Positions 27,957 through 55,478 of a DNA stretch of 64,000 nt are shown one piece after another. Under the pieces are notes generated by a model. The model had not been told where the DNA came from. It searched no databases and was given only the letters and a program-made list of their open reading frames with translations. The stretch is from Escherichia coli (lineage in GTDB: Bacteria > Pseudomonadota > Gammaproteobacteria > Enterobacterales > Enterobacteriaceae), in the NCBI RefSeq assembly GCF_051903065.1, contig NZ_CP178438.1, one strand, 5' to 3'. Positions within the stretch are counted from its first letter, which is position 1, and every line of letters starts with the position of its first letter. A program made the translations under genes and the position numbers.

Positions 27957-30518
27957 ATGAGTGCAATAGAAAATTTCGACGCCCATACGCCCATGATGCA
28001 GCAGTATCTCAAGCTGAAAGCCCAGCATCCCGAGATCCTGCTGTTTTACCGGATGGGTGATTTTTATGAACTGTTTTATGACGACGCAAAACGCGCGTCG
28101 CAACTGCTGGATATTTCACTGACCAAACGAGGTGCTTCAGCGGGAGAGCCGATCCCGATGGCGGGGATCCCCTACCATGCGGTGGAAAACTACCTCGCCA
28201 AACTGGTGAATCAGGGCGAGTCCGTTGCCATCTGCGAACAAATTGGCGATCCGGCGACCAGCAAAGGTCCGGTTGAGCGCAAAGTTGTGCGTATCGTTAC
28301 GCCAGGCACCATCAGCGATGAAGCCCTGTTGCAGGAGCGTCAGGACAACCTGCTGGCGGCTATCTGGCAGGACAGCAAAGGTTTCGGCTACGCGACGCTG
28401 GATATCAGTTCCGGGCGTTTTCGCCTGAGCGAACCGGCTGACCGGGAAACGATGGCGGCAGAACTGCAACGCACTAATCCTGCGGAACTGCTGTATGCAG
28501 AAGATTTTGCTGAAATGTCGTTAATTGAAGGCCGTCGCGGCCTGCGCCGTCGCCCGCTGTGGGAGTTTGAAATCGACACCGCGCGCCAGCAGTTGAATCT
28601 GCAATTTGGCACTCGCGATCTGGTCGGTTTTGGCGTCGAGAACGCGCCGCGCGGACTTTGTGCTGCCGGTTGTCTGTTGCAGTATGCGAAAGATACCCAA
28701 CGTACGACTCTGCCGCATATTCGTTCCATCACCATGGAACGTGAGCAGGACAGCATCATTATGGATGCCGCGACGCGTCGTAATCTGGAAATCACCCAGA
28801 ACCTGGCGGGTGGTGCGGAAAATACGCTGGCTTCTGTGCTCGACTGCACCGTCACGCCGATGGGCAGCCGTATGCTGAAACGCTGGCTGCATATGCCAGT
28901 GCGCGATACCCGCGTGTTGCTTGAGCGCCAGCAAACTATTGGCGCATTGCAGGATTTCACCGCCGGGCTACAGCCGGTACTGCGTCAGGTCGGCGACCTG
29001 GAACGTATTCTGGCACGTCTGGCTTTACGAACTGCTCGCCCACGCGATCTGGCCCGTATGCGCCACGCTTTCCAGCAACTGCCGGAGCTGCGTGCGCAGT
29101 TAGAAACTGTCGATAGTGCACCGGTACAGGCGCTACGTGAGAAGATGGGCGAGTTTGCCGAGCTGCGCGATCTGCTGGAGCGAGCAATCATCGACACACC
29201 GCCGGTGCTGGTACGCGACGGTGGTGTTATCGCATCGGGCTATAACGAAGAGCTGGATGAGTGGCGCGCGCTGGCTGACGGCGCGACCGATTATCTGGAG
29301 CGTCTGGAAGTCCGCGAGCGTGAACGTACCGGCCTGGACACGCTGAAAGTTGGCTTTAATGCGGTGCACGGCTACTACATTCAAATCAGCCGTGGGCAAA
29401 GCCATCTGGCACCCATCAACTACATGCGTCGCCAGACGCTGAAAAACGCCGAGCGCTACATCATTCCAGAGCTAAAAGAGTACGAAGATAAAGTTCTCAC
29501 CTCAAAAGGCAAAGCACTGGCACTGGAAAAACAGCTTTATGAAGAGTTGTTCGACCTGCTGTTGCCGCATCTGGAAGCGTTGCAACAGAGCGCGAGCGCG
29601 CTGGCGGAACTCGACGTGCTGGTGAACCTGGCGGAACGGGCCTATACCCTGAACTACACCTGCCCGACCTTTATTGATAAACCGGGCATTCGCATTACCG
29701 AAGGCCGCCATCCGGTGGTTGAACAGGTGCTGAACGAGCCATTTATCGCCAACCCGCTGAACCTGTCGCCACAGCGTCGCATGTTGATCATTACCGGTCC
29801 GAATATGGGCGGTAAAAGTACCTATATGCGCCAGACCGCACTGATTGCGCTGATGGCCTACATCGGCAGCTATGTACCGGCACAAAAAGTTGAGATTGGA
29901 CCTATCGATCGCATCTTTACCCGCGTAGGGGCAGCGGATGATCTGGCATCCGGGCGTTCAACCTTTATGGTGGAAATGACCGAAACCGCCAATATTTTAC
30001 ATAACGCCACCGAGTACAGTCTGGTACTGATGGATGAGATTGGGCGCGGAACTTCCACTTACGATGGTCTGTCGCTGGCGTGGGCGTGCGCGGAAAATCT
30101 GGCGAATAAGATTAAAGCATTGACGTTGTTTGCTACCCACTATTTCGAGCTGACCCAGTTACCGGAGAAAATGGAAGGCGTCGCCAACGTGCATCTCGAT
30201 GCACTGGAGCACGGCGACACCATTGCCTTTATGCATAGCGTGCAGAATGGCGCGGCGAGCAAAAGCTACGGCCTCGCGGTTGCAGCTCTGGCCGGCGTGC
30301 CAAAAGAGGTTATTAAGCGCGCACGGCAAAAACTGCGTGAGCTGGAAAGCATTTCGCCGAACGCCGCCGCTACGCAAGTGGATGGTACACAAATGTCTTT
30401 GCTGTCCGTACCGGAAGAAACCTCGCCTGCGGTCGAGGCACTGGAAAACCTCGATCCAGATTCACTCACCCCGCGTCAGGCGCTGGAATGGATTTATCGC
30501 CTGAAGAGTCTGGTGTAA
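27957..30518 (+). CDS. mutS: DNA mismatch repair protein MutS
   Basis: 853 aa; Walker [10 protein letters not shown]; full length and intact. Confidence 0.96.
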
Positions 30519-30623
30519 TAATAATTCCCGATAGTCTTTTGCTATCGGGAATATTAACGATAACTGACGAATCAAATAAAAATACCCTGTATAATAGGAA
30601 AGCTTATTTTACAGGGTAAAACC

Positions 30624-31280
30624 ATGCCATCTACACGCTATCAAAAAATCAATGCCCATCACTATCGCCATATATGGGTCGTTGGTGATATTCATGGTGA
30701 ATATCAGTTATTACAATCCCGCTTAAATCAACTCTCTTTTTTCCCCGAAACCGACTTACTTATTTCTGTCGGTGATAATATTGATCGTGGGCCGGAGAGT
30801 CTTAACGTCCTGCGCCTGCTAAACCAGCCCTGGTTTATCTCCGTTAAAGGCAACCACGAAGCAATGGCGCTGGATGCGTTCGCGACCGGCGATGGCAATA
30901 TGTGGCGTGCCAGCGGTGGTGACTGGTTTTTCGATTTAAATGATTCAGAGCAACAAGAGGCAATAGATCTGTTGCTGAAATTCCATCACCTTCCACATAT
31001 TATTGAAATCACTAACGACAACATAAAATATGTCATCGCACATGCAGATTATCCGGGGAGTGAATATCTCTTTGGTAAAGAAATAGCGGAGAGCGAATTA
31101 CTCTGGCCTGTTGATCGTGTGCAGAAATCACTTAATGGCGAGTTACAACAAATAAACGGCGCTGATTATTTTATATTTGGACATATGATGTTTGATAACA
31201 TTCAGACGTTCGCTAACCAGATTTATATTGATACCGGATCGCCGAAAAGCGGGCGGCTGTCATTTTATAAAATAAAGTAA
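30624..31280 (+). CDS. pphB: Serine/threonine protein phosphatase 2 (PP2B-like metallophosphatase)
   Basis: 218 aa; metallophosphatase motifs GDIHG, GDNIDRG, GNHE. Confidence 0.9.
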   Translation: MPSTRYQKINAHHYRHIWVVGDIHGEYQLLQSRLNQLSFFPETDLLISVGDNIDRGPESLNVLRLLNQPWFISVKGNHEAMALDAFATGDGNMWRASGGDWFFDLNDSEQQEAIDLLLKFHHLPHIIEITNDNIKYVIAHADYPGSEYLFGKEIAESELLWPVDRVQKSLNGELQQINGADYFIFGHMMFDNIQTFANQIYIDTGSPKSGRLSFYKIK

Positions 31281-31284
31281 TGAG

Positions 31285-31319
31285 GCCGGGTAAAGCAAAG
31301 CCACTACCCGGCACTTTTT
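31285..31319 (+). terminator. Rho-independent terminator after pphB
   Basis: GCCGGGTA-(12 nt loop)-TACCCGGC followed by ACTTTTTA. Confidence 0.6.
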
Positions 31320-31320
31320 A

Positions 31321-31557
31321 TTAGCGCTTACCTTCCGCCAGCAGCGGCGGGATGCTCGGCACCATTGGCGCGTCATCAATATCTTTCTGCGTCATGCGGA
31401 ACGCTTCGGGATAATGTTCGCGGCTGGTACGGCGCAGCGGTTCGGTATCGCGCCAGGTATAAAGGCAATGCTGGCACTGATATACCGTCCAGACATCTTT
31501 CACCGGCGATTTCGCCATCACTTCAATCTGTTCATCGGCACAACGTGGACAAATCAT
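31321..31557 (-). CDS. ecdD: Small zinc-ribbon subunit D of a UbiX/UbiD-type aromatic acid decarboxylase (BsdD/VdcD/KpdD family)
   Basis: 78 aa with CxxC...CxxC (MICPRCADEQ...CQHC); immediately downstream of the UbiD-like gene; symbol follows my recollection of E. coli O157 naming and needs confirmation. Confidence 0.7.
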   Translation of the reverse strand: MICPRCADEQIEVMAKSPVKDVWTVYQCQHCLYTWRDTEPLRRTSREHYPEAFRMTQKDIDDAPMVPSIPPLLAEGKR

Positions 31558-31567
31558 CTTGTTCTCC

Positions 31568-32995
31568 TTATTTACGTGCAGCCAGCATAGCGGTCAGTTT
31601 TTCAGCCCAGGCTTTGGTTTCCGGCAAATCCACCACCGGCTGGCTGTAGTGACCACGGTTGTCCGGGGCGACAGGCGTGGTGGCGTCGATAATCAGCTTG
31701 TCGGTGATCCCCGCCGGGCTTGAGCCAGGGTCGAGTTCCAGCACGGACATATTCGGCAACTGCACCAAATCCCCTGCCGGATTTACTTTCGAGGAGAGCG
31801 CCCACATCACCTGCGGCAGGTTGAACGGGTCAACGTCTTCATCGACCATAATCACCATCTTTACGTAGCCCAGACCGTGCGGCGTGGTCATCGCACGCAG
31901 GCCCACCGCGCGGGCAAAGCCGCCGTAGCGTTTTTTGGTGGAGATAATCGCCAGCAGGCCGTGGGTGTACATGGCGTTTACCGCCTGCACTTCCGGGAAC
32001 TCGGCTTTCAGTTGTTGATACAGCGGTACGCAGGTGGCTGGCCCCATCAGGTAGTCGATTTCGGTCCACGGCATGCCGAGGTACAGCGATTCGAAAATCG
32101 GCCTGGTGCGGTAAGAGACTTTATCGATGCGCACCACGGTCATGTTACGCCCGCCGGAGTAGTGTCCGGTAAACTCACCGAACGGCCCCTCGATTTCGCG
32201 TTTACGGCTTTCGATGACCCCTTCGAGGATCACTTCTGAACCCCACGGCACATCAAAACCGGTCAGCGGGGCGGTGGCGATCGGGTACGAGCTTTCACGC
32301 AGCGCGCCTGCCATTTCATACTCAGACTGATCGTATTTCAGCGGCGTGGCCCCCATCAGCGTGATGATCGGATCGTTACCGAGCGTGATGGCAATCGGCA
32401 GATCTTCACCGCGCTCTTCTGCTTTATGCAGATGCAGGGCGATATCGTGCATCGGCACCGGTTGCAGGCCGAGCTTACGCTTGCCCTTCACTTCCATGCG
32501 GTAGATGCCGACGTTCTGCTTGCCGAAGTTATCTGGGTCGAGCGGATCGCGGGAAACCACGCACGCTTTGTCGAGATAGAAACCGCCATCACCGTCGTTT
32601 AAACGAAACAGCGGCAGGATATCGAACAGATTAATCTCGTCACCATCGACGGTGTTCTGCGCCCAGGCTGGATTGGCGCGGCGCTCCGGGGCGATCGGGA
32701 AGTTATCCCAGCGGCGGATAAACTCATCAATCTGTTTTTTAACCGGGGTGTTTGGCGGCAGGCCCAAGGAAATCGCGTGGTTCTGCCAGGAACCGATGGT
32801 ATTCATCGCCACGCGGGCATCGGTAAAACCGCGAATATTATCAAACCACAGCGCCGGTGCACCATCGCCGATACGCCCGGTGGCGTTGGCAGCGGCAGCC
32901 AGATCCGGTTCCGCGTTCACCTCTTCGCTGATTTTCAGTAACTGGCCGTGGTCATCAAGCGCCTGTAAAAAGCTGCGTAAATCATCAAATGCCAT
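31568..32995 (-). CDS. ecdC: UbiD-family (prFMN-dependent) aromatic acid decarboxylase, subunit C
   Basis: 475 aa UbiD-like translation; operon order B-C-D on minus strand. Confidence 0.8.
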   Translation of the reverse strand: MAFDDLRSFLQALDDHGQLLKISEEVNAEPDLAAAANATGRIGDGAPALWFDNIRGFTDARVAMNTIGSWQNHAISLGLPPNTPVKKQIDEFIRRWDNFPIAPERRANPAWAQNTVDGDEINLFDILPLFRLNDGDGGFYLDKACVVSRDPLDPDNFGKQNVGIYRMEVKGKRKLGLQPVPMHDIALHLHKAEERGEDLPIAITLGNDPIITLMGATPLKYDQSEYEMAGALRESSYPIATAPLTGFDVPWGSEVILEGVIESRKREIEGPFGEFTGHYSGGRNMTVVRIDKVSYRTRPIFESLYLGMPWTEIDYLMGPATCVPLYQQLKAEFPEVQAVNAMYTHGLLAIISTKKRYGGFARAVGLRAMTTPHGLGYVKMVIMVDEDVDPFNLPQVMWALSSKVNPAGDLVQLPNMSVLELDPGSSPAGITDKLIIDATTPVAPDNRGHYSQPVVDLPETKAWAEKLTAMLAARK

Positions 32996-33588
32996 TATTC
33001 ATTCTCCTGAGAAAAATTCCGGGCCTGCGGCAATCCTTGCCAGCGCCTGGCGTGGGGATGTTCGAGGCCAAATTGATCCAGCACGCGGGCTACTACATGG
33101 TGGACAATGTCATCTACCGTTTCGGGATGGTTATAAAAGGCAGGCATCGGCGGCACCATCGCCACGCCCATGCGTGAAAGTGCGAGCATATTTTCGAGAT
33201 GGATGGTGCTAAGCGGCATTTCACGCGGCACCAGCACCAGTTTGCGGCCTTCTTTGAGCACGACGTCCGCCGCGCGCCCTACCAGGCCATCAGCGTAACC
33301 AGCGCGGATACCGGCGAGCGTTTTCATACTGCACGGAATAACGATCATGCCGTCGGTACGAAAGGAACCTGAGGAGATGGTCGCCGCCTGATCCGCCGGG
33401 TTATGGCTGAAGTCAGCGAGGGCAGCAACATCGCGGGCGCTGTAAGGCGTTTCCAGTTCAATGGTGGTTTTCGCCCACTTCGACATCACCAGATGAGTCT
33501 CGACATTCGGCATCTCCCGCAGCGCTTGCAGTAATGCCACACCAAGAGGCGCACCGGTAGCCCCTGTCATCCCGACGATCAGTTTCAT
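32995..33588 (-). CDS. ecdB: UbiX/Pad1-family flavin prenyltransferase, subunit B
   Basis: 197 aa; N-terminal MKLIVGMTGATGA flavoprotein motif typical of UbiX. Confidence 0.8.
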   Translation of the reverse strand: MKLIVGMTGATGAPLGVALLQALREMPNVETHLVMSKWAKTTIELETPYSARDVAALADFSHNPADQAATISSGSFRTDGMIVIPCSMKTLAGIRAGYADGLVGRAADVVLKEGRKLVLVPREMPLSTIHLENMLALSRMGVAMVPPMPAFYNHPETVDDIVHHVVARVLDQFGLEHPHARRWQGLPQARNFSQENE

Positions 33589-45341: not shown

Positions 45342-45858
45342 GGGTGTTCTACCGCAGGGGCGGGGAATTCTCAGTGATATCCATCATCGCATCCAGTGCG
45401 CCCGGTTTATCCCCGCTGGCGCGGGGAACACGTGTGGCACTCTGCGTCTGGTATTAAATCATTCGGTTTATCCCCGCTGGCGCGGGGAACACCCGCCACG
45501 CCGTGCGCATCAACAGATATACGCAGGTTTATCCCCGCTGGCGCGGGGAACACAAACCGAAACACACGATCAATCCGAATATGAGCGGTTTATCCCCGCT
45601 GGCGCGGGGAACACCGAAAAGGCACCGTGCCGGTGACGTTCAATTCCGGTTTATCCCCGCTGGCGCGGGGAACACCGTTTTCACTCACTGGCAATCTCCG
45701 AGCAGAGCGGTTTATCCCCGCTGGCGCGGGGAACACGTGCGAATACCGTGTAAAAAATTAGTGTTATTCGGTTTATCCCCGCTGGCGCGGGGAACACTCA
45801 CGGTAGCGCCACTGCGCGTCGGTGACGGGCGGTTTATCCCCGCTGGCGCGGGGAACAC
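45342..45858 (-). CRISPR. Type I-E CRISPR array: 8 canonical 29-bp repeats plus one degenerate terminal repeat, 8 spacers
   Basis: Repeat on + strand CGGTTTATCCCCGCTGGCGCGGGGAACAC at 45403, 45464, 45525 (first base A), 45586, 45647, 45708, 45769, 45830; 61-bp period; degenerate iap-proximal repeat 45342-45370 matches 19/29; spacers 32 bp; leader at the high-coordinate end, so crRNA is read from the minus strand. Confidence 0.97.
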
Positions 45859-52115: not shown

Positions 52116-52144
52116 CTGTTCCCCGCGTCAGCGGGGATAAGCCC
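52116..52144 (+). repeat. Solitary CRISPR-repeat-like element in the cas3-cse1 intergenic region
   Basis: + strand CTGTTCCCCGCGTCAGCGGGGATAAGCCC matches the crRNA-sense repeat GTGTTCCCCGCGCCAGCGGGGATAAACCG at 25/29 with the stem intact; orientation is opposite to the array; followed by a perfect 10-bp hairpin at 52142-52165 that abuts the cas3 stop. Confidence 0.8.
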
Positions 52145-55061: not shown

Positions 55062-55214
55062 CTACTTCTTCGATTCGTAAGCGAGAACAGCCTTAAACTC
55101 CATACCACGTTCTCTGATACTCAACTCACACAACGAGTCACCTACCATCAGCGTGAATCCCAGTACTGTACAACACAGTACGATGATTGCCACAAGGGCA
55201 TATTTTGTCAGCAT
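55062..55214 (-). CDS. Hok/Gef-family type I toxin (50 aa), HokE-like
   Basis: Not in ORF track (too short). ATG 55214 after GGGAGG; translation [50 protein letters not shown] with the Hok signature SLCE..R.G.E..A.LAYES.K; stem-loop GCGGGGGTAAAACCCCGC just downstream (55036-55055). Confidence 0.7.
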
Positions 55215-55478
55215 GTCTTGCCTCCCTGCAAAGAAGAGACTAACATTCGAATTGCTTAGGTTCGAACGCTGGCCTCAGGTTGATAGAAATATCGCCTGGG
55301 GCTTTTGTCCATCTGGAACCTCGCGAATGCTTAACGCCAGACAGCCTCAAGCACCCAACACCATTCTATACCTGTTAATTCTTCCAGCGGCGTTCACGTT
55401 TAAAATCAGGAATGCTGCTCGCAAAATAAAAACGCCCCCATCATTTCTGACAGAGGCGTTTAATTTATCCGGCAATAT

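Follow-up and report, generated by a model that had tools for sequence, protein, structure and literature searches.

A hairpin at the reported 3' end of mutS mRNA that overlaps the probable promoter of pphB in Escherichia coli

In Escherichia coli, the gene for serine/threonine phosphatase 2 (pphB) follows mutS in the same orientation, and the short spacer between the two genes contains an inverted repeat together with a TATAAT hexamer just upstream of the pphB start codon. This arrangement raises the question of which of the two genes the inverted repeat serves, and whether it acts as DNA or as RNA. A previous sequence-only reading had offered two answers, namely a structured 5' leader of pphB that affects translation initiation, or a promoter -10 element within coincidental dyad symmetry. 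We investigated the question in a 64,000-nt stretch of an E. coli genome (assembly GCF_051903065.1, contig NZ_CP178438.1), which we call the window and whose positions are used below.

The hairpin in the mutS-pphB spacer

In the window, mutS (27957-30518, plus strand) and pphB (30624-31280, plus strand, with its ATG at 30624) are tandem genes separated by 105 nt, and the transcript of the upstream gene has been reported to stop at the inverted repeat, as described below. Coordinates of MG1655 (NC_000913.3) equal window positions plus 2,829,136. For coordinates given in U00096.2, an offset of 1978 nt to version 3 was used. This offset was checked on the rpoS promoter, with its known leader length of 567 nt: the version 3 rpoS start codon (2867551) plus 567 minus 1978 gives 2866140. 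This is the position of the corresponding entry in Romero et al.

The 9-bp arms of the repeat lie exactly where the sequence-only reading had placed them, with TACCCTGTA at 30583-30591 and TACAGGGTA at 30610-30618. The 18-nt loop that had been assigned to them does not hold, since pairing goes on past a single U.U mismatch (T.T in the DNA) into an inner stem of 6 bp, AAUAGG/CUUAUU, which includes one G-U pair. The plus-strand hairpin at 30583-30618 thus has 15 pairs in total and a loop of 4 nt (AAAG, 30599-30602). The TATAAT hexamer, which had been placed inside the loop, extends from the outer stem across the mismatch into the inner stem. The distance of 3 nt to the start codon that had been given is that from the end of the feature at 30620; the stem itself ends at 30618, which is 5 nt (AAACC) from the ATG. 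The hairpin is real, and it is larger and stronger than had been described.

We then compared the hairpin with chance expectation. RNA folding of the 36-mer gave a free energy of -17.5 kcal/mol with a z-score of -6.1, and none of 200 dinucleotide shuffles was equally good. Bare 9-bp perfect inverted repeats with loops of 3-20 nt are not rare, as 15 of them were found in the window against 4.0 +/- 2.1 in dinucleotide shuffles, and a repeat of this kind is unremarkable by itself. The full 15-pair structure, formed by a sequence of 33% G+C inside a 105-nt spacer, is well beyond chance. In terms of raw fold energy, the hairpin falls within the top 0.8% of 40-nt windows, a rank that is uninformative genome-wide because G+C-rich coding windows fold equally well.

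The hairpin occurs once in the window. Of 5426 complete E. coli genomes, 5209 contain it, at a median of one place per genome and with 95.7-100% identity over 70 nt. Being single-copy in the window and in the genomes, it is not a dispersed repeat (REP, MITE or similar). Scans against Rfam 15 yielded nothing relevant, either permissively over 30300-31500 or at gathering thresholds over the whole window; the sole permissive hit was mir-1991, which scored 22.9 bits where gathering requires 66 (E = 0.16).

The spacer contains another hairpin, which comes first on the plus strand. It lies 3' of the mutS stop codon at 30524-30552 and consists of an 11-bp perfect stem and a 7-nt loop. Its U-tract downstream on the plus strand is poor (AUAUUAACGA), its minus strand has a U-rich tail, and its reversed form scored as terminator-like in a terminator scan. 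Both spacer hairpins share this polarity, with no U-tract on the plus strand and U-rich tails on the minus strand. In E. albertii, the stem of the first hairpin is retained despite sequence changes.

Several other features were recorded in and beyond pphB. Inside pphB, the codons of the GDIHGE metallophosphatase motif are overlain by an inverted repeat at 30686-30706, whose 9-bp arms match perfectly around a 3-nt loop (TGATATTCA TGG TGAATATCA). Between pphB and a convergent gene for a 78-aa EcdD-like protein, a hairpin at 31283-31320 (GCCGGGTA...TACCCGGC) is followed by a U-tract on the plus strand (CACTTTTTATTA) and is likely to be the pphB terminator. At 31321-33588 (minus strand), a UbiX-like / UbiD-like / EcdD-like decarboxylase operon takes the place of the ygbI-ltnD genes found downstream of pphB in K-12, an exchange already known as a polymorphism of this mutS-rpoS region. 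In Klebsiella spallanzanii, this decarboxylase operon likewise lies beside pphB, with two flanking hok-family genes. Farther away, at 45403-45856, eight type I-E-like repeats (CGGTTTATCCCCGCTGGCGCGGGGAAC) at a spacing of 61 bp form a CRISPR array, which Tandem Repeats Finder missed; one degenerate solitary CRISPR repeat lies at 52118-52144 (minus strand), about 6 kb beyond the array. At 55199-55356 (minus strand), an Rfam hit covers the whole length of sok, the antitoxin RNA of a hok/sok locus (111.7 bits, E = 1.4e-24).

The end of mutS mRNA and the start of pphB

The first line of evidence concerning function comes from published transcript ends. SMRT-Cappable-seq, which sequences full-length primary transcripts and adds poly(A), lists for gene b2733 (mutS) a forward unit with a TSS at 2857024 and a TTS at 2859753, marked 'novelTTS' (PMC6131387, supplementary file 3). 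This unit comes from one dataset, and it is the single row with TSS 2857024 in the passage of the file consulted. The reported end corresponds to window position 30617. In K-12, the change T30583C removes the outermost pair, so that the K-12 hairpin pairs 30584-30617 and the reported end coincides with its last paired base. Because four A residues follow and the method poly(A)-tails the RNA, the end is ambiguous by up to 4 nt (30617-30621). According to these 3'-end data, in the portion of the single dataset consulted, the full hairpin is transcribed from mutS. Since mutS transcripts end at the hairpin, its symmetry is probably not coincidental; the dyad symmetry noted by the sequence-only reading stands, but coincidence is not its best description, because the published mutS 3' end falls at the hairpin's foot.

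The second line of evidence concerns Rho. Adams et al. (PMC7815308, supplementary file 2) called a Rho-termination region at 2859755(+), equivalent to window position 30619, a position that represents the best-scoring coordinate of a window-based statistic rather than a mapped end. In 800-nt windows, the counts were 71 upstream and 39 downstream in untreated cells, and 69 and 172, respectively, with bicyclomycin, giving a Rho score of 4.54 (p = 2.7e-10; PMC7815308). As downstream coverage exceeded upstream coverage in the presence of bicyclomycin, transcripts initiated in the spacer, at the pphB promoter, must account for part of the rise. The curated Term-seq 3' ends of the same study (PMC7815308, supplementary files 1 and 3) include no position 28596xx or 28597xx.

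These two lines can be compared with a pattern described by Dar & Sorek 2018 (PMC6061677), who reported that Rho-dependent transcripts of E. coli have precise steady-state 3' ends directly after stable stem-loops. Such stem-loops lack a U-tract and are followed by a mild bias of C over G; Rho terminates further downstream, after which PNPase and RNase II trim the RNA to the stem (PMC6061677). The sequence features of the present hairpin match this pattern. It has a stable stem, which is followed on the plus strand by AAAACC (AAAACCAUG) with no U-tract, and the terminator scan made no call. The adjoining 82 nt (30619-30700, plus strand) have a C/G ratio of 1.43 and constitute a candidate Rho loading region, and the bicyclomycin-sensitive call is 2 nt from the mutS end. 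That this end lies at the second rather than the first hairpin is expected of trimming from downstream, because an exonuclease reaches the distal hairpin first. We therefore propose, with a confidence somewhat better than even, that the hairpin is the protective 3' stem-loop of a Rho-terminated mutS mRNA, and that it overlaps the promoter and ribosome-binding site of pphB.

The overlap with the promoter depends on the TATAAT at 30590-30595 (plus strand). As far as can be judged from sequence comparison, this hexamer is very probably the -10 element of pphB, and the strongest evidence is that its position is conserved across genera with differing upstream DNA. Of 14 loci examined, 11 have a TATAAT at a distance of 28-33 nt before the pphB ATG, irrespective of the DNA further upstream; they include loci of E. 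coli, E. albertii, E. marmotae, Salmonella, Superficieibacter and three further lineages. The hexamer is unchanged in all E. coli-group sequences examined, and in five of the 11 loci it is preceded by TGn, which gives the extended -10 form. In addition, Shimada et al. reported a SELEX binding peak of RpoD holoenzyme, together with H-NS, in the mutS>pphB spacer. Both the conservation and the reported peak support the second proposal of the sequence-only reading, that of a -10 element. Shimada et al. themselves proposed, by sequence search, a pphB promoter further upstream (TTAACG-17-TAAAAA), from which transcription would start near 30589, within the 5' arm of the hairpin.

A plus-strand promoter scan found no -35 hexamer 16-18 bp upstream of TATAAT, and the best -35-like hexamer is cTGACg, with a 20-bp spacer. 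Given the usual distance between -10 and +1, transcription of pphB is predicted to start about 7 nt beyond TATAAT, at 30601-30603 (about 30602, plus strand), with a leader of about 21-23 nt. No forward pphB TSS is listed in the ROSE supplement, the Kim 2012 supplements or Romero 2014, and in the Shigella M90T tables pphB appears in the count table only, with no pphB TSS. The spacer also contains a sigma-32-like sequence, cTGAcgA-N14-CCCtgTAT, which we mention as a speculation.

pphB has no other Shine-Dalgarno-like element than AGGG at 30613-30616 (plus strand), on which the overlap with the ribosome-binding site depends. This element forms part of the 3' arm, at a distance of 7 nt from the ATG, and was paired in every fold that held both arms. 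These folds suggest that the hairpin would mask the pphB Shine-Dalgarno sequence only in RNA that reads in from mutS.

Taken together, a single 36-nt sequence may be read twice, as DNA in a promoter and as RNA at the end of the mutS transcript. As DNA, for which RNA polymerase binding in the spacer is published and conservation of the -10 across genera was found here, its 5' half would hold the TATAAT of a weak sigma-70-type pphB promoter without a good -35, and we infer that transcription begins near 30602. In that case, with a leader of about 22 nt that holds the 3' arm alone, pphB's own transcript would form no hairpin. As RNA, the complete hairpin would be made only by polymerase arriving from mutS; here the position of the mutS 3' end and the bicyclomycin effect there are published, and the structure and its restriction to one clade were obtained in our analysis. 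Polymerase would pass the first hairpin, which has no good U-tract on the plus strand, and the second hairpin (30583-30618) would fold but, also without a U-tract, would not by itself cause termination. Further on, at the beginning of pphB, where C is abundant and G scarce, Rho would halt the polymerase. We infer that 3'-to-5' exonucleases would then trim the tail to the foot of the hairpin, leaving the stable 3' end of mutS mRNA. In the read-through RNA, AGGG would presumably be paired, PphB would not be translated, and such ribosome-free RNA may favour the loading of Rho.

A more ambitious version of this proposal is that the sequence has been selected as an insulator with three duties. It would be the promoter of pphB; it would cap and stabilise mutS mRNA while hiding the pphB ribosome-binding site, so that leaked RNA recruits Rho and PphB is made from its own promoter only; and on the opposite strand it would stop antisense transcription before mutS. 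We hold this version only tentatively and consider it rather doubtful.

Distribution and variation of the hairpin among relatives

Next, we gathered pphB loci by DNA and protein similarity, and additionally sampled E. coli variants. The hairpin was present in all sampled E. coli lineages, E. albertii, the Escherichia cryptic-clade genome MOD1-EC7003, a Citrobacter-labelled MAG and Pseudocitrobacter vendiensis, and absent from E. marmotae and a related Escherichia genome, Salmonella, Superficieibacter and three further lineages. Of three further homologues, one had a nearly identical hairpin and two had none. From the sequences sampled, the hairpin appears to be confined to the E. coli / E. albertii group, which is a narrow clade. 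In other enterobacteria, mutS adjoins pphB without the hairpin. In Salmonella, pphB is instead found upstream of mutS, where SPI-1 ends, and the two are separated by an unrelated gene of 173 aa.

Between E. coli and E. marmotae, homology ends at the mutS stop codon and restarts 12 nt inside pphB, so that the entire spacer is a lineage-specific segment. E. marmotae has a 177-aa minus-strand gene between mutS and pphB, which is unrelated to the Salmonella gene at the analogous position. The E. coli spacer has no residual similarity to this E. marmotae gene, so that the idea of a deletion remnant was rejected. From these comparisons, pphB would seem to relocate as a small unit together with its own TATAAT. 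Two further observations were made on individual genomes. In E. coli KCTC 2571, an IS1 is inserted inside the hairpin, right after ...CCCTGTATAA, and most of pphB is gone, with a 3' fragment left. In Superficieibacter, the extended -10 and the ATG are separated by an unrelated hairpin of 7 bp (CTCACCT...AGGTGAG), situated within the 46 nt that precede pphB; it also pairs the Shine-Dalgarno sequence and may be an independent case of the same layout.

We then analyzed the variation of individual pairs in 10 distinct hairpin sequences. Ten of the 15 pairs never vary and three are broken in some lineages, these being the terminal pair, in K-12 and BL21, and loop-adjacent pairs. One-sided changes convert a G-C to a G-U pair in E. 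albertii and a G-U to an A-U pair in MOD1-EC7003, and no pair is altered on both sides among the 10 sequences. All four loop columns vary, compared with five of 30 stem columns (hypergeometric estimate, about 0.003), although such a concentration in the loop is also expected for an unconstrained stretch between -10 and +1. Likewise, a constraint on the promoter and the 5' UTR accounts for the conserved arms just as well. The two strands differ in fold stability, with -17.5 kcal/mol on the plus strand and -13.7 on the minus strand here, and -12.7 and -7.5, respectively, in E. albertii. The plus-strand fold was at least as stable as the minus-strand fold in every hairpin-bearing lineage, because G-U pairs exist on the plus strand only. 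This is weak evidence that plus-strand RNA may be the relevant form, rather than DNA or minus-strand RNA.

These comparisons bear on the simplest alternative, in which there is a promoter and nothing else: TATAAT is the -10, the 3' arm is the 5' UTR and ribosome-binding site of pphB, and their complementarity has no selected function. The mutS 3' end would then be a by-product, because any stable hairpin stops exonucleases. This explanation fits the finding that the -10 is conserved across genera and the hairpin is not, as well as the absence of covariation, the species in which mutS lies beside pphB with no hairpin, and the expectation of four 9-bp inverted repeats per 64 kb by chance. It does not readily account for a 15-pair structure with a z-score of about -6, nor for arms that have kept their complementarity in every sampled E. 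coli-group lineage, the one core change being from G-C to G-U. The concentration of variation in the loop also argues against it, as does the mutS 3' end, which is defined by the hairpin in the part of the published file consulted. For these reasons, we think it unlikely that the promoter is the whole explanation, and we continue to favor a protective stem-loop at the end of mutS mRNA.

Other explanations and comparison with known systems

We also considered the minus strand. Directly after the hairpin on this strand, an A-rich tract at 30570-30582 reads UUUUUAUUUGAUU, the stem being followed by UUUUUAUUU, which gives the shape of a leftward intrinsic terminator. Such a terminator would stop antisense transcription through pphB before mutS is reached, whether this transcription originates in the convergent genes downstream or at internal antisense promoters. 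The shape is right, both spacer hairpins have U-rich tails on this strand, and antisense transcription in pphB exists, as Adams et al. called a Rho region at 2860217(-) (PMC7815308). However, the minus-strand fold is weaker (-14.5 kcal/mol, z -3.65), and it loses most of its stability in E. albertii, with the -7.5 kcal/mol given above. A simple terminator scan made no call, and no minus-strand 3' end at 28597xx appears in the portions of the two datasets (PMC7815308 and PMC6131387) that were searched. This explanation is compatible with a protective 3' stem-loop on the plus strand, but we judge it, with its proposed antisense sources, to be quite improbable.

The structured pphB leader proposed by the sequence-only reading would need a start upstream of 30583, so that a hairpin in the 5' UTR hides the Shine-Dalgarno sequence and controls translation. 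The position of AGGG in the 3' arm, the promoter predicted further upstream by Shimada et al. and the presence of both arms in mutS read-through RNA are all consistent with such a leader. Nevertheless, even the Shimada promoter would start inside the 5' arm, and the conserved -10 predicts a start near 30602, which leaves the 5' arm outside pphB's own mRNA and makes a leader hairpin unlikely. No forward TSS upstream of the stem is present in the datasets searched. When the leader was folded, as had been suggested as a check, RNA of 30601-30660, from the predicted start onward, showed no significant structure (z +0.68). A structured leader is thus unsupported for pphB's own transcript, and we consider this explanation very unlikely.

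Finally, the symmetry could be read as DNA. The pattern TACCCTGTA-N18-TACAGGGTA might be bound by a putative dimeric regulator, but we know of no regulator with the half-site TACCCTGTA. The consensus spacing of the LexA box is CTG-N10-CAG, and a LexA box (CTGT...ACAG) is ruled out by its spacing, N20 here against N8. Alternatively, two opposed -10 elements, TGTATAAT on the plus strand and TGTAAAAT on the minus strand, might form interleaved divergent promoters. The minus strand has a mirror -10-like TAAAAT at 30611-30606, and Romero 2014 lists a class II reverse-strand site at U00096.2 2857758, which corresponds to window position 30600, in the hairpin loop and 5-6 nt downstream of TAAAAT. A leftward RNA from about 30600 would reach the reversed mutS hairpin (30552-30524, with tail UAUUAUUACA) after about 80 nt, and this RNA would overlap the mutS stop codon. 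The operator or divergent promoters are scarcely credible to us: the reverse-strand 5' end, the terminator-like score of the reversed first hairpin, at which the leftward promoter's short RNA could end, and the H-NS binding reported by Shimada et al. agree with them, but that 5' end was TAP-enriched only, with no leading edge of transcription in Romero 2014, the hairpin has no Rfam match, its 18-bp spacing is unlike that of a LexA box, and G-U pairs and the E. albertii change leave the dyad imperfect as DNA.

If the hairpin is a protective stem-loop of mutS mRNA, its weight is modest. It would give a concrete 3' end structure to the mRNA of mutS, whose level affects mutation rate, and it indicates that within a 105-nt spacer one transcription unit can end and the following one begin in the same 36 nt. 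If the step that combines masking with Rho is also true, the locus would be a tidy example of how bacteria prevent expression of a neighboring gene by read-through. The coordinate of the mutS 3' end was already published; its coincidence with the hairpin and the pphB promoter is apparently undescribed in the literature searched.

The locus can be compared with four known systems. The closest are the protective 3' stem-loops of Rho-dependent transcripts (PMC6061677), with which it shares a stable stem, a steady-state 3' end at the foot of the stem, the lack of a U-tract, a mild excess of C over G and a bicyclomycin-sensitive locus. It differs from them in the A-rich tract that precedes the stem, which was reported to be untypical of Rho-dependent ends, and in that the hairpin overlaps the -10 and Shine-Dalgarno sequences of the next gene. 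A canonical intrinsic terminator is similar in being a stem-loop at a gene end, and on the minus strand the full shape of hairpin plus U-tract is present; on the plus strand, where the end has been mapped, AAAACC takes the place of the U-tract and only about one-third of the stem is G+C. The promoter resembles sigma-70 promoters that have a consensus -10 and no recognisable -35, given its perfect, conserved TATAAT and the reported binding of RpoD holoenzyme, but its best -35-like cTGACg is 20 bp off, and in E. coli the TG is at -14/-13, which is not the extended -10 position seen in several orthologues. In leaders that sequester the Shine-Dalgarno sequence, such as translational operators and RNA thermometers, this sequence is paired, and so is AGGG in the 3' arm here, pphB's sole such element and 7 nt away from its ATG; the difference is that both arms here occur together in mutS read-through RNA only and not in the predicted pphB transcript. 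The parts, namely a -10 element, a protective 3' stem-loop and Rho termination, are all of known kinds, and their arrangement is ordinary.
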